A stretch of 63,253 nt of DNA, from the sequence record AP012531; one strand, written 5' to 3'. Within the stretch, counting starts at the first letter, position 1. Each line of letters starts with the position of its first letter. This document shows positions 48,001-60,000 of this stretch, piece after piece. The stretch comes from Stx2-converting phage Stx2a_F422. The position numbers are program-made.

Positions 48001-51000
48001 ACCACACGGGGGCAGGTATCGCAGGCAGATAAGTATGTTGCCGGGCTACAGGATGTTGCTGCTCTCGGTTCTGGTCAGAAGGCGGATGCGTTACAGAGTT
48101 TTAACTCTCTGGCAGACAGCAGTCTGGCAAAAGCTAAATCGGATGCACAGGCGGCGTTTACGAAACAGCAGGGGCGAGCCTCTCTTGTTGGCGCTGGTCT
48201 GGGTGCGGCAGGTGCATATGCGATGCATAAGGCTGGCGGTAGCGGAGGAAGTGGCGGTGCTAAAACACCTGGCACCGGCGCTAATGCCATTCAGCATCAG
48301 GCTCAGAACTGGAGACTGTAATTATGGAGTATGGCAAATACGAAACTCTCGCAAGGGCTGGTTATTCAGGAGCAGACCGCCCACAGGGTGACTGGCAGAC
48401 GTCAGCAGCGCTGACACGCCAACAATACGACGACTGGCGAACCAGATATTTGCCCCGCGTGGCAAGGCTGGCTGACCTTGGGGAGAACAACAGTCTGATG
48501 AATGCACAGCTTGCACGGGTGGGAGGCCTTGCCACTTCCAGTCTCCGTACAGCGCAGATGGCGCAGGATAACCAGATGGCGAGATACGGGGTAAACCGCC
48601 CGGATAATCCCGACAGTAATACGCTGGGGTTACGTAATGCCCTGGCAATTGCTGGCGCGAAAAATGGTATCCGTGAAGCCGAACAGGATCGCCAGATGAA
48701 TATTCTGACGGGGGCTTCTGCACCGGCAAGACAGAAACTGAGTGTTGGCGGCCAACTGGTGGCAGCGTAAGGGGGCAATATGGGATACGGTTTACTGGAT
48801 ATTGCAAATCAGTCGCGGCGTGAGGCATTACAGGGAATAAGTGACGCAGACAGACGACGTGAAGAAATTGAGGCTGCGAACAAACAGATGGCGGCGCAAC
48901 AGAAAGCGCAGAACAAGCAGAATATCGGTACGGGCATTGGTACGGGGGCGGCTATTGGCGCATCCGTTGGTGGTCCTGTTGGTGCTGTTGCTGGAGCAGT
49001 AATTGGCGGCATTGCTGGTTCTTTGTTTTAAGGAGTGGTGAATGAGCGGATTTGCACAGGGGTTACTTGCCGGATTCAGCACCGTTGACCAGGCAATGAC
49101 CCGTCGTAAGGAGCTTGGTCTGCGTGAAGCACAGCTTGCCCGGCAACAGAAAAATAACGAGCGCGATTTTGAGTTTGCGCAGTCTCAGTTTGAACATAAT
49201 AAAAACGTTGATCAGCGGAACTTTGATTACAGAGCCAAAGTTGACGACCGTAATTATGCACTGAAGGAGAGGGAGTTTAACGCTAACCAGAATTACCGGA
49301 ATGCGTCACTGGGTATGGAGCAGCAGCGACTCCAGTTGCAGAAATACAACCAGCGACGGCTTGAGTATAACGATATGATTGCCCATAGCCAGCCACTAAT
49401 GGAAGCGCTTGGAAAAGCAATTGAGGCTGGCGATCAGGAGGCTGCAACGCGTCTGTTCGGGCAGCTGCCAAAGGGACATCCATTAATTCTTATGTCAAAC
49501 GAAGGCTATGCAGCGAAAGCGGGTCAGGCCGTGATCAACCTGCAAAAAATCTTTGGTGATAAGCCGGACATGGCGATCGATTCGCTGAATACCCCGGAAA
49601 ATCTCGATGTGCTTTCCGGCGTGTTTGCCCCGGAACTACAACAGCGTATTGGCATGCCTGATTCAACCGGGGACAAAACGATAAAAGAGGCCAGGATTGG
49701 CAGTATCGTACCAGCGCAGCAGGAAGGGTACGTACTTATTGGCCTTGATCTCACATACAGCGATGGCTCCACCGCGCATAAACCTGTAACAGAATACGGC
49801 AGTGCGCACCCTGATGATCAAACCGTGCTGGCGATACCCGTTGATAAGGCTATCGCTCAGGTCAGGGATCGCAGCAAATTTGCAGAGATATCGAAAAATT
49901 ATGGTTATTTTATGCCGAAGCAGCAGGGACTTTCTCTGAAAGAGCTTCAGAAGGGGGCCAGCAACGTAGCGGCGGACGCGATCAAGAATGGCGGTAATGC
50001 TCAGGCTGCGGTGGATGAATATTATGCTGCGACTGGTTCACAACCGCATCAACAGAAAATTCAGCAACAAAAACTTCAGCAACAGGTTATCAACTGGGCG
50101 GGAGATGATCCTGACAAGCTGTCATTTGCCAGAAATGTAGCGGCCCGTCAGCCTGAAATGCTGGAACCTCAGAATCAGAAATTGCTGGAGAACGGGTATG
50201 CGAATTTTCTCCGTATTCAAAAGGCCAGGGGGGAACAGGCCAGAGATGAAAGTGCTTCATCTGCATCTCAGTTTATCCGTGGACTGAAACAGAATTACGC
50301 CCAGTAATTCACGATATTCCATTAATACCATTTCCTGATGCCCGGCCATTGTGCCGGGTTTTTTTATGGAGTCTGTATGGCCTATTCAGAGGAACAGCGT
50401 CCTGAGGCGCAACTCGGTAACCAGAATCGTAACAGCCTGAACATTCAGCAACCCGGCGAAACTGACAGCTATGAAGCATTTTTCTCTGATCCGAATCGCT
50501 GGAAGGATAACAGTACGTCGTTCAGCCTGGGCGATGTATTGCCAACAATGGGTAAAGGTTTCGCCCAGTCCGTCCGGGGAACAGGGGAAATGGCCCGTGG
50601 ACTCGGTGATGCGATGATTCAGAGCCCGGTAAAAACAGGGGCGCGTATTTTAAATGAGTTCAGCCGTATGGGGCTGCCGGGTGTCGCAACTGTGCAGGAT
50701 ATTTTTGCCGGTGGCAGCAGGGGGGCTGATGAGGTCATCGATACCCTGCCTGATGGCAAAAACGCGGTTACTGATATTGTCGGTAAAGGTCTGAAGGCAA
50801 CCGGTAAGGCTGTCAGTGATGGTGCCAAAGCCACTGATGAATGGCTGACCGGTAAGATGTCGCCGGGTGCAGTTCGTGCGCTGAATACGCCGATGACCGA
50901 AGGCTATAATGATTCTGCGGTCTGGGTGGCGAAGGGTGTAAACCTGATTGGTGCGCTTGTACCTGATATGGTTGCTGGCGGTGTGGCTAGAAAGGTGGGT

Positions 51001-57000: not shown

Positions 57001-60000
57001 AGCAATGCCTTTGTTCGTACGCTGGGGAAAGTTAACCGCTTCCTGGCAACGGTGAACACGTCGTATAACCCGGAATTCCTGGTCAGTAACTTCATCCGTG
57101 ACGTGCAGACGGCGGTGATGAACCTGAAGGCGGAGCAGGGAAGGAGCGACGGTAAACTGAAAGGGCTGGATAACTTATCCGCCCTGGCTGTGGTGAAAGA
57201 CAGCCGTTCTGCCATGTCAGCCGTATACGCCAGTCTGCGTGGTAAAACCCTCACGGGAAAAGGTGCACAGTGGCAGAAGGTGTGGAAAGAGTTTGTTGAG
57301 GACGGAGGGAAAACCGGCTGGTTTAACATGGGTGACCTTGAAGGCCAGCAGAAGGAAATGGATCGCCTTGTCTCACTGGCGAAGGGGGGATGGAAAGGCC
57401 AGAGTATCGGTGCATGGAATTCGTTCCTTAACCTTGTCGAGGATGCCAACGGTGCGGTTGAAAACGCTCTGCGTCTTTCTGCCTATAAGCACGCCCGTGA
57501 TGCCGGTTTGTCACGCCAGCAGGCGGCGTCTCTTGCCAAAAACATGACGGTGAACTTTAACCGTCGTGGTGAGCAGGGGGCGCTGATGAATTCGCTGTAC
57601 ATGTTCGCCAACGCCAGCATTCAGGGAACGGCAAATCTGGTGAGAACGCTCGGACATCTTAATGGTGAGGGACCTTTACTGGAGCGCCTTCGCTGGAAGA
57701 ATCTGAATGTTCCGCAGAAAATCGCGCTTGCCGCTGTGGGAGCAGGTTATCTGCTTGGCTCGCTTAACCGCAGCGTGGCGGGTGAGGATGATGACGGGGT
57801 TAACTGGTATGACAAGGTGCCGTCTCATGTGAAAGAGCGTAACCTCGTCATTATGAAATCGGTGTTCGGGGGCAAGGCCGGAGAGTACTGGAGTATTCCT
57901 CTGCCTTACGGGTACAACGTTTTCTTCCTGCTCGGGCATACTGCTGAAGGTGTGGCGGCGGGTGACCTGACGGCGTCCCGTGCTGCCGGTAATGTTGTTG
58001 GTGGTGTGCTTGGTGCATTCAGCCCGATTGGCAGTGAGACGTCGGAAACACTGTCCGGGGCATTGCTGAAAAATGCAGCGCCGACCATTCTGCGTCCGTT
58101 TGCGAACCTTGCCATGAATGAAAACTTCATGGGGGCGCAGATTTACCAGGAGAACATGCCGTTTGGTACACCAAAACCTGACAGCCAGCTGGGAAGACGT
58201 TCAACGCCAGAAGCGTACAAGGCGTTTGCATCCTGGCTGAATGCGTTCTCAGGTGGCAGCCAGTACCGTCCCGGCGCGGTGGATATCACACCGGAATCGC
58301 TGAAATTCTGGATTGACTATATCTCCGGAGGGACAGGGCGCTTCATTTCCAAAACCACGGATGCGGCGGTGAAATCGCTGAATGGTATTGATATACCGGA
58401 ACAGCAGGTGCCCTTCCTGGGGAAAATTTCGGGGGAGGTGATGCCGTATGCAGACCAGCAGAAGATGTACGACCGGATGACAGAGATTGCGCAGTATCAC
58501 GCAGAGCTGAAGAGTCTGACCGGTGCAGAAAGAACGGCGTTCATTGACGAGAACAACGGAAAATTGTCGATGAACGGGCTTATGCAGGATACCCGGAAGA
58601 GACTGAAGGATTTGCGTAAACAGCGTGATGCCATTTACGCCGACAGTACTCTCAGTCTGGCGCAACAGTCGGCGATGGTGAAATCGGTAGAGCGGGATAT
58701 GAAAATTGCCGTGGATCGGTTTAACCGCGAGTACAACAAAAAAGTGGGAGTGGATTAACAGAAATGGCCCCGTACGGAAGTGCGGGGCTGATTAAGAAAT
58801 AAACACTCATTGACCTGTAATAACCGGAGCTATTAACATATAGTCAGAAGAGCATTTCATGTGATACAGAGAGCCGATTTATGTTTAATGAAGAAAAAGT
58901 TGCGCAAATGGCAGCGTATTTGCTGAAAAAGCATGGCGGATCTATGCGTTTCATTAAGCTGAAGCAGCAACGGTAATGGCGAATAGCATTTATGAGCAAA
59001 ATAATCTTGATATGTTATTAGGCGATCTGATGTAACCGGGATGATGTTCACCCCTTATCGCCGGGGAACAATACCGGCAATCAGAATTGCGGATGGAACT
59101 ATTCAGGCCCACGATGATATCGATGAGGAGTTTTTTCAGCCAGTATTGGATGGCTTTCTTATATCCAAATATACGCCATTTGACATCCTCCACGCCCTGA
59201 AGGACGGGGTTTTACAGCGCACCGGATAAGATTCGGTGTTTTGTTGAAAAATACTGTGATAACAAACAGAAAACCCGTCAGTAAGACGGGCTTAGCAAGC
59301 TGGGACGGTTACTTTAATAATTTCAGTGCCTTTACATCCACTTCAACACTGCTCAGGTCTTTATCAATTTCACCCTCAATTCTTACTTTGTCTTTCGGAG
59401 AAACATTCTGACCGGCCCATATGCTGTCATCGATATCCGTGACAATTGTCCCGCTATTGTCACGAAACTCATAACGTTCATCACCCACTTTTTTAACGAT
59501 GCTCCCTTCAAGGATAACCCATGCATCATCCTTCAGTTCTTTTGCCTGCGCTACTGTTGAACGCTCTGCTTCAGGCCCTTGGAAACCGCCCTGCTGTGCA
59601 AAAGCGCCAAAAGACACACCAGAAATAAGTGCTGCAATCAATACCTTTTTCATTCATAGTCCTCTTTCAGAGATGAACATTCAAACAGCATTTTCAGTAT
59701 GGTAAAGCGCGGGTGCGTTGAGGATGCCTGACACATCAGAGGTGGCGGGAGATTACTCCCCCGCTTGGTCTCTTACTTCTCAGATTCGTAGTCTACGAAG
59801 ACAGCGACCTCCGTCTGACCGGTTCGGATTCGCACCTCGCAGAGGTCTTTCCTCGTTACCAGTGCCGTCACTATGACGGTTAAACAGATGACGATCAGGG
59901 CGATTAACATCGCCTTTTGCTGCTTCATAGCCTGCTTCTCCTTGCCTTTCGGCACGTAAGAGGCTAACCTACATGTGTTCAGCATGGATTGAGCCTCAGA

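Follow-up and report, generated by a model that had tools for sequence, protein, structure and literature searches.

The giant, cysteine-free polyvalent protein of 933W/Sp5-type Stx phages: two predicted zincin domains, a RelE-like fold and a probable role in ejection

Stx phages carry Shiga-toxin genes between E. coli, and a 308-kDa protein is encoded by an essential virion gene of theirs. The paper on phage Sp5 (PMC5155283) reports that the gene concerned, ORF80, is indispensable for forming plaques and lysogens, whereas DNA is packaged without it, and that ΔORF80 particles contain packaged DNA, have normal heads and are not bound by anti-tail-fibre antibody. For phage phi24B, a preprint (bioRxiv 10.64898/2026.04.10.717836) describes the orthologue, gp47, as detected by mass spectrometry in purified virions, as abundant in the mature particle and as absent from the ordered density of capsid and tail. 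Together with 933W L0134 these represent the same gene (97–100% identity), the product of which is a proposed ejection protein. The labels given to it there, AAA+ ATPase in the Sp5 paper and MuF-C metallopeptidase in the phi24B preprint, are both unsupported by our analysis, and the available portions of the two descriptions make no mention of the two zincins, the RelE-like fold or the absence of cysteine that we report here. Phage-type polyvalent proteins, as defined by Iyer, Burroughs, Anand, de Souza and Aravind (2017, PMC5512222), have LPD5, LPD1, MuF_C and LPD38 as hallmark domains and comprise one peptidase clade whose members have a His where strand 2 ends and, three residues past HExxH, an Asp, and another with the motif HExxxH. 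The CLCA_X metallopeptidases (Lenart et al. 2013, PMC3650047), most members of which are phage-carried, feature HExxH followed by a conserved Asp (consensus written HExxHxxxD) and are reported to be the sister family of CLCA_N.

The window analyzed here, a stretch of 63,253 nucleotides from Stx2-converting phage Stx2a_F422 (AP012531), is that of a 933W/Sp5-type Stx2 phage. Its giant-protein gene (50377..58758, plus strand; 2793 aa plus stop, 308 kDa, pI 8.6, zero cysteine) equals 933W L0134 and Sp5 ORF80 (ECs1242), has phi24B gp47 as an orthologue at ~97% identity, is 100% identical at the nucleotide level to its counterparts in 933W, VT2-Sakai and further Stx phages, and matches entries in 185 phage records. 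An earlier, sequence-only reading had described a single 8.4-kb frame that follows a terminator and ends the late module, and all of this holds: the frame is uninterrupted up to the stop at 58758; a terminator-like hairpin with T-run (50340..50366, plus strand; hairpin 50340-50359 with a 7-bp stem containing 6 GC pairs) lies directly 5' of the start codon; and the gene closes the late structural operon, in which the portal, tail-fibre and virion genes precede it, in keeping with the placement of polyvalent proteins among late/virion genes. ATG 50377, with GGAG 7 nt upstream, opens the 2793-aa reading, while the RefSeq 933W start is an alternative ATG at 50338 (2806 aa) located within the terminator hairpin. 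In 933W, most of the genes 3' of the giant are short or run in the opposite direction (YgiW-like, hok/sok, Ant). The upstream gene (49042..50307, plus strand; 421 aa, no cysteine) is by position the putative equivalent of Sp5 ORF79/ECs1241, an essential gene according to the Sp5 paper (PMC5155283). Its weak similarity to the gene that lies 5' of the giant gene in Vibrio phage K248 means that gene order is conserved. Both the gene and the protein family are already known, and our analysis is a refinement of the existing picture and adds no new type of system; new are the second predicted zincin, the RelE-like fold of the MuF-C domain, a C-terminal module that matches no solved structure and the total absence of cysteine.

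A domain-by-domain profile search, which the sequence-only reading had suggested as a check, returned LPD5, LPD1, MuF_C and LPD38, all over Pfam thresholds. With two predicted zincins, one RelE-like fold and these four Pfam domains, the protein combines at least two unrelated effector-type domains with LPD domains, as polyvalent proteins do, and its proposed status as a candidate multidomain polyvalent effector gains support from these domains and from the occurrence of the orthologue in virions, injection itself being a matter of inference. Ala and Gly abound in the conserved N-terminal module (aa 1-440; 50377..51696, plus strand), where residues 181-199 are weakly hydrophobic and residues 406-433 resemble a Gly zipper; other giants (Vibrio phage K248; P0265, P0268, P0271) have this module at 26-30% identity. 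It is followed by a compositionally biased, probably disordered linker (aa 441-900; 51697..53076, plus strand), rich in E/Q/R/P/G/A and hydrophobic-poor, for which no family match was found. The long low-complexity Gly/Ala and Pro/Glu segments noticed before are only in part borne out, as compositional bias (aa 401-500 are 24% Ala); these are biased regions and not simple repeats. The giant lacks any transmembrane segment of strong hydrophobicity, its best 19-residue window scoring 1.2-1.4 on the Kyte-Doolittle scale.

The first zincin (aa 1182-1437; 53920..54687, plus strand), of CLCA_X type, fills the gap between LPD5 (aa 1051-1200; 53527..53976, plus strand), the N-terminal part of which is modelled as a small alpha/beta subdomain and the C-terminal end of which already falls within the zincin, and LPD1 (aa 1361-1440). 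It contains HEWFH at aa 1284-1288 (nt 54226-54240), precisely where the motif had been spotted; the earlier reading overlooked HEIIH(H), another such motif, which lies at aa 1551-1556. Composition predicts 0.035 HExxH motifs for this protein, and 3.2% of shuffled sequences contain at least one and 0.055% at least two. Conservation is the stronger argument, the H, E and H of HEWFH being at least 90% conserved in 77 homologues, next to H1263 (54163-54165), D1291 (54247-54249), E1375 (54499-54501) and E1382 (54520-54522), the latter two invariant in the 77 sequences. Structure prediction, also proposed beforehand, yielded a model (pLDDT 85) with a helix, three strands, the HExxH helix and a Glu helix, that is, a zincin fold, in which E1375 and E1382 both reside on helix 334-352; the predicted placement of HExxH on one helix and a metal ligand on a downstream helix is that of gluzincins. 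NCBIfam CLCA_X (NF041907) matches with an E of 9e-44 over profile positions 3-245 (243/250). Conservation, model and CLCA_X match all agree with the impression of a metallopeptidase core, and the predicted fold around HEWFH is that of a genuine, conserved zinc metallopeptidase. Because the score, 149.7 bits, stays below the curated CLCA_X cutoff of 260, we consider zincin 1 a homologous domain and not a named member under NCBI's rule. Zincin 1 also fits the polyvalent clade that has a His where strand 2 ends, and its Asp is at +3 from the second His, unlike in the published CLCA_X consensus HExxHxxxD. It differs from CLCA_X proteins in being embedded in a 2793-aa polypeptide and in having the LPD5 subdomain before it. 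None of the Pfam peptidase models, MPTase-PolyVal included, exceeds its gathering threshold for either zincin, and the sole trace is Peptidase_M76 near HEIIH (E 0.23). The LPD5-zincin-LPD1 unit also occurs as a stand-alone 335-aa protein, in both contexts examined among small non-structural phage genes.

The putative second zincin, zincin 2 (aa 1473-1670; 54793..55386, plus strand), carries LRHEIIHH, with the motif at aa 1551-1556 (55027-55044) and HExxxH as the family consensus. Nearly all of its 386 representative homologues reside within giants. HExxxH is found in 141/144 and E1607 (55195-55197) in 144/144 homologues, and E1614 is conserved as well, so that both the HExxxH-type motif and its downstream Glu are present. 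Alignment of zincin 2 with zincin 1 by hhalign gave a register-correct match (P 0.007). Over 103 giants of 1818-6026 aa the median number of residues after zincin 2 is 923, and stand-alone zincin-2 proteins of 211-272 aa exist. The Stx clade reads HEIIHH, making either spacing possible, and GP4 has HEMFH at this place. For both zincins the closest folds are protein endopeptidases, namely MtfA, Pro-Pro endopeptidase and lethal factor.

Downstream follows the MuF_C/PBECR domain (aa 1716-1840; 55522..55896, plus strand), which combines the Pfam MuF_C match with a BECR, RelE/BrnT-like RNase-toxin fold (PMC5512222). Conserved residues are K1745, H1752, D1768, H1801, S1816 and Y1818; K1745, H1752, H1801 and S1816 are conserved across 34 non-redundant homologues. 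MuF-C as a peptidase is rejected on account of this RelE-like RNase fold, also assigned in PMC5512222.

The constant C-terminal module (aa 1888-2793, ~900 aa; 56038..58755, plus strand) is mostly alpha-helical, with a weakly hydrophobic segment at 2445-2467, and contains LPD38 (aa 2476-2681; 57802-58419, plus strand). Counterparts occur at 40% identity in Vibrio-phage giants, at 26-27% in the giant of Ralstonia phage GP4 and at 28% in that of Methanosarcina virus MetMV, and the module is fused to a wide range of payloads: ART, methyltransferases, InPase, LPD3 and helicase, and SLT in GP4. No relative was found among solved structures, nor was similarity detected to the ejection proteins of T7, P22 and N4. 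Given the Cys frequency of the window, the probability that the giant protein would have no cysteine is 2.6e-11; the giants of K248, D274 and GP4 as well as N4 gp50 are likewise Cys-free, as are 93 of the 103 giants.

Taken together, we think it likely that the giant is a virion-internal ejection protein of 933W/Sp5-type Stx podophages with the build of a phage-type polyvalent protein. The orthologue's presence in purified phi24B virions, as reported by others, speaks against absence from virions, which the earlier reading had named as a refutation. The protein is synthesized late and enclosed in the T=9 head, as shown for phi24B, and it is needed for infectivity and dispensable for packaging, as shown for Sp5. 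During infection it would leave via the tail largely unfolded and, we infer, be injected into the host cell. Such expulsion may explain why cysteine is missing altogether, as it also is from the N4 virion RNA polymerase, a known ejected protein. The N-terminal module and the helical, LPD38-containing C-terminal module would form a delivery or conduit scaffold and the middle part the payload, the conduit role being assigned by analogy because none of the T7, P22 and N4 ejection proteins detectably resembles the C-terminal module. From architecture we would assign zincin 1 and the MuF-C/PBECR domain an action in trans, most likely against proteins and RNA of the host soon after infection begins, and zincin 2, always just upstream of the C-terminal module, would be the best candidate for a cis-cleavage that releases the payload.

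Alternatively, the HExxH domains might be solely auto-processing, with both zincins cutting the giant polypeptide itself and no host targets involved. CLCA_N is self-cleaving, as is eukaryotic CLCA. CLCA_X is the reported sister family of CLCA_N (PMC3650047), autoproteolysis has been proposed as the main role of polyvalent-protein peptidases (PMC5512222), and the position of zincin 2 is fixed relative to the C-terminal module. We nevertheless find this reading unlikely, as the stand-alone LPD5-zincin-LPD1 and zincin-2 proteins have no cargo to release and as no cleavage products are known from reports on gp47 or ORF80. Short-tailed phages need to breach the cell wall, and the preprint on phi24B proposes a wall-cutting role, in which the metallopeptidase would open peptide cross-links so that a trans-periplasmic conduit reaches the inner membrane; the GP4 giant, with its SLT domain at aa 56-148, shows that this scaffold does bear payloads that degrade the wall. 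The peptidase of that proposal, however, is the 'MuF-C' domain, in fact a RelE-like RNase fold (PMC5512222), both zincins are nearest to endopeptidases that cut proteins, and the zincin-1 unit stands alone among non-structural genes in both contexts examined, which together render peptidoglycan cleavage improbable. Similarly doubtful is the view of the Sp5 paper that the protein is a tail-assembly factor or AAA+ ATPase that powers or scaffolds tail attachment in morphogenesis, and no injected effector. This view draws on the antibody-unbound ΔORF80 particles and on a reported match to COG1483 'predicted ATPase' (PMC5155283), but the Walker A motif [AG]xxxxGK[ST] is absent from the giant, no P-loop/AAA family emerged from Pfam, NCBIfam and PHROGs searches, the domain content is typical for polyvalent proteins, and the phi24B orthologue is, by the preprint's account, abundant in mature virions. 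The antibody result as reported does suggest that the protein helps to complete the tail or neck; a model of pure cargo leaves this unexplained, and such a structural role could coexist with ejection. That the HExxH regions are metal-binding non-peptidases (alpha-KG/HExxH oxygenase-like, YbeY-like nuclease or catalytically dead structural domains) is very improbable, their best and most numerous structural matches being bona fide peptidases and the general-base Glu and distal gluzincin Glu helix being 90-100% conserved.

Returning to the ejection protein, we tentatively suggest, as a speculative extension, that zincin 2 and the Cys-free ~900-aa C-terminal module constitute a generic self-releasing injection cassette that delivers interchangeable enzymatic payloads ahead of the DNA. 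If true, Sepvirinae, GP4-like phages and Vibrio podophages would use it, a homologous C-terminal module being found also in a Methanosarcina virus; the Stx payload would be a CLCA_X-type protease plus a RelE-like RNase, disabling a host defence or function required to block lysogenic conversion; and a single catalytic-Glu knockout would stop toxin-gene spread with virion assembly unaffected. The fixed geometry of this cysteine-free module, seen in GP4-like phages and Vibrio podophages alike, may represent a general solution for large-protein injection. Candidate catalytic centres are now located (E1285 and E1552, with H1752 as putative RNase centre), and two published mis-assignments, the AAA+ ATPase and 'MuF-C metallopeptidase' labels, are corrected.

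The GP4 giant has its lytic transglycosylase at the N-terminus, and T7 gp16 likewise bears an N-terminal lytic transglycosylase. With T7 gp14/15/16 and P22 gp7/16/20 the Stx giant shares the profile of an internal virion protein that is essential for infection and dispensable for packaging, as given in the literature (PMC5155283; phi24B preprint); it differs in being one polypeptide, not three, and in carrying enzymatic payload domains, and we detected no sequence or fold similarity to the T7 and P22 proteins. P1 DarB is a large head-packaged protein delivered alongside DNA, and relatives of the giant are annotated 'DarB-like antirestriction', the PHROG DarB-like match of the Stx protein being limited to aa 2351-2681 of the C-terminal module. 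In the Vibrio D274 giant, a relative, the same C-terminal scaffold carries both helicase and methyltransferase; profile searches detected neither domain in the Stx giant, and identity with a P1 DarB-type antirestriction protein is rejected, as N6-adenine methyltransferase and helicase are absent. N4 gp50 resembles the Stx protein in being giant (3500 aa), Cys-free and a resident of a T=9 podovirus head, from which gp50 is ejected into the cell, and in having a HExxH zincin-like C1 domain ahead of a large, helical C-terminal domain for which no fold relatives are known (PMC13434306). The Stx protein differs in lacking an RNA polymerase domain and in the sequence of its C-terminal module, which is not similar, and zincin 2 matches the N4 HELVH site only marginally. 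Among the polyvalent proteins of Iyer, Burroughs, Anand, de Souza and Aravind (PMC5512222) the Stx giant is a member that differs in nothing essential, its two zincins fitting two of their peptidase clades.

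The 8.4-kb gene is a genuine reading frame, open without interruption to its stop at 58758, and it lies, as the sequence-only reading had placed it, at the end of the late structural operon, preceded by portal, tail-fibre and virion genes. Translation from the ATG at 50377, which has GGAG 7 nt upstream, yields 2793 aa, the length given for 933W and Sp5 in GenBank. The ATG at 50338, which would give a longer reading, falls within a GC-rich hairpin (50340-50359) that has a T-run behind it; this terminator-like site immediately precedes the giant gene, and the 2806-aa RefSeq product of 933W starts at this ATG in the terminator hairpin, without a ribosome-binding site (50338-50377). 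The 8.4 kb are 100% identical to 933W (L0134), VT2-Sakai (Sp5) and many other Stx1/Stx2 phages, with 185 matching phage records, and 97% identical to phi24B over the segment compared. Downstream of the gene in 933W are mostly small or opposite-strand genes (YgiW-like, hok/sok, Ant); a literature search on 933W L0134 found nothing. The upstream 421-aa gene (49042-50307), which like the giant lacks cysteine, is by position the essential Sp5 ORF79, and it weakly resembles (30% over 108 aa, E 2e-12) the gene 5' of the giant in Vibrio phage K248, a hint that the two genes form a conserved pair. Elsewhere in the window, three tRNA genes (Met-CAT, Arg-TCG and Arg-TCT; 22433-22684) stand just 5' of a 319-aa ORF (22775-23734), presumably the stx A-subunit region.

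Pfam places four domains well above threshold, LPD5 (aa 1051-1200), LPD1 (aa 1361-1440), MuF_C (aa 1750-1839) and LPD38 (aa 2476-2681), all of them hallmarks of phage-type polyvalent proteins (PMC5512222). Pfam, run on the whole protein and on seven sub-segments with E-values up to 10 admitted, assigned no peptidase family, the sole peptidase trace being Peptidase_M76 at E 0.23, and PDB sequence and profile searches with the whole protein and with alignment A1 returned nothing. A DarB-type methyltransferase and helicase are likewise absent by Pfam. The region from aa 1 to about 800 shares 26-30% identity with several giants, very long homologous proteins. Of the low-complexity segments originally described, what stands is a stretch with 24% Ala (aa 401-500) and a hydrophobic-poor region rich in E, Q, R, P, G and A (aa 441-900); the description is otherwise not borne out. 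Proteins found in three homologue searches never exceeded about 1.75 times the query length, and full-length giants were obtained by the representative search and by tblastn against phage genomes.

The HEWFH motif is located exactly where first reported (aa 1284-1288, nt 54226-54240); by composition 0.035 HExxH motifs are expected in the giant, and one is present in 3.2% of shuffles. Searching with aa 1195-1450 retrieved many homologues, including numerous complete proteins of ~335 aa with nothing beyond LPD5, the HExxH region and LPD1. In an alignment of 77 sequences H1263 (motif AAHYE), H1284, E1285, W1286, H1288 and D1291 are 90-100% conserved, as are E1375 and E1382, the motif ExxARAFE here being the start of Pfam LPD1. 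This pattern matches a peptidase clade in which a His ends strand 2 and an Asp lies three residues past HExxH (PMC5512222). In addition, NCBIfam CLCA_X (NF041907), a family carried by phages and plasmids and sister to the CLCA metalloprotease domain (PMC3650047), matches aa 1182-1437 with E 9e-44, at 149.7 bits and hence below its curated cutoff of 260. Clade and family matches together speak against a non-peptidase fold and, with the conserved signature, for the peptidase-type region initially proposed. The C-terminal part of LPD5, the unannotated gap and the N-terminal part of LPD1 are one zincin domain (zincin 1, aa 1182-1437) with an intact catalytic signature, a predicted peptidase, and this signature and the polyvalent hallmark domains support the view of the giant as a metallopeptidase-bearing polyvalent protein. 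Genes for the stand-alone 335-aa LPD5-zincin-LPD1 proteins occur in runs of small non-structural phage genes (4569-8008 in the metagenomic phage contig L007; 10001-11011 in the comparison locus L006), in L007 directly after GGACT, Amidoligase_2 and GATase_6 genes.

A further motif of this kind at aa 1551-1556, HEIIH(H), had been overlooked. Residues 1473-1664 align with Vibrio phage giants, in which the motif reads HEILAH or HELVVH, and an exhaustive HMMER search gathered 386 representative homologues, almost all within proteins of 2000-6000 aa. HExxxH (LRHEhhxHHGL) is present in 141 of 144 aligned segments, while E1607 is kept in every one and E1614 in 133. By this family comparison HExxxH is the ancestral spacing and a true HExxH is rejected; one residue has been lost in the Stx clade, where HEIIHH therefore fits both spacings. 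The Ralstonia phage GP4 homologue has HEMFH. Among 103 giants of 1818-6026 aa the distance from this putative zincin domain (zincin 2, aa 1473-1670) to the C-terminus is nearly constant (median 923 residues, interquartile range 868-1082). Some giant relatives (P0264, P0267 and P0268) carry two copies of zincin 2 in tandem.

The C-terminal module (aa 1888-2793) shares 40% identity with the K248 giant's C-terminus and 26-27% with that of the GP4 giant. Its upstream partners in relatives include ADP-ribosyltransferase, methyltransferases, InPase and LPD3, and further a helicase plus methyltransferase (D274) or an SLT lytic transglycosylase (GP4); it also makes up whole proteins of about 900-990 aa by itself. 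The module is built mostly of helices, and a Foldseek comparison of model 2 with the PDB gave no credible solved-structure relative at E up to 0.001, weak transporter-like helical matches being discarded at TM-scores around 0.1. A homologue in Methanosarcina virus MetMV (MK170447.1, 40105-42492; 28% over 92% of the 906-aa query, E 5e-77) is unexpected, this being an archaeal virus and the module being presumed to cross the Gram-negative envelope. The GP4 giant (3224 aa; 7050-16721 in its locus, L004), labelled 'DarB-like antirestriction', has an SLT lytic transglycosylase at its N-terminus and further carries LPD3, a zincin-2-like domain with HEMFH and the C-terminal module of the Stx giant; with no methyltransferase or helicase detected in it, the label looks misleading.

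According to the Sp5 study (PMC5155283), deletion of ORF80 (ECs1242, 2793 aa) abolishes plaques and lysogenisation and leaves DNA packaging and head formation unaffected. An anti-tail-fibre antibody does not bind the ΔORF80 particles (PMC5155283), an otherwise unexplained lack of detectable tail fibres that suggests an additional role in neck or tail completion. For phi24B gp47 (2811 aa), a preprint (bioRxiv 10.64898/2026.04.10.717836) reports mass-spectrometric detection in purified virions and no ordered cryo-EM density, proposes an encapsidated ejection protein and describes a tail closely like that of GP4. Virion presence, which the proposal of an injected effector had called for, is shown for the phi24B orthologue, essentiality without a packaging defect for Sp5, and the late-operon location for the gene in the window. 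We propose that the giant would be ejected through the tail, its N- and C-terminal modules forming a delivery or conduit scaffold, that zincin 2 may cleave in cis at the payload-scaffold boundary, and that zincin 1 and the PBECR (MuF_C) domain would act in trans within the cell, as suggested by the stand-alone LPD5-zincin-LPD1 genes, whose neighbours in both contexts examined are small non-structural phage genes. Auto-processing by zincin 2 as the only role is possible, but the stand-alone forms fit it poorly. The peptidoglycan-cutting role put forward in the phi24B preprint (2026) is weakened: it builds on MuF-C being a metallopeptidase (bioRxiv 10.64898/2026.04.10.717836), whereas this domain (aa 1716-1840; 55522-55896) models as a RelE/BrnT-like RNase-toxin fold and is mislabelled, the actual zincins lying elsewhere in the giant, and the fold neighbours of the zincins also speak against it. 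The AAA+/P-loop ATPase of the Sp5 paper fails because the giant has no P-loop.

Earlier publications already cover the gene, its essentiality, virion presence, polyvalent classification and both peptidase clades. Added here are an explicit map of two zincins, one concealed between two Pfam models, correction of two published mis-assignments (AAA+ ATPase and MuF-C metallopeptidase), the fixed distance between zincin 2 and the C-terminus, and a Cys-free signature. The Stx giant has no cysteine in 2793 residues (P = 2.6e-11 at 0.87% Cys, the mean of the window's other proteins), and neither do 93 of 103 giant homologues. N4 gp50, the virion RNA polymerase of that phage, whose ejection is experimentally established (PMC13434306), shows no similarity to the Stx C-terminal module, a match to its C2 domain being rejected at an HMM score of -1.5 bits. 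Like the Stx giant, the 3500-aa N4 virion RNA polymerase (L003 14524-25026, minus strand) is Cys-free, as are the giants of Vibrio K248 and D274 (L001 7849-15354 and L002 5692-15177) and of GP4 (L004 7050-16721), and we read this common absence as a probable signature of unfolded passage across the oxidising periplasm.
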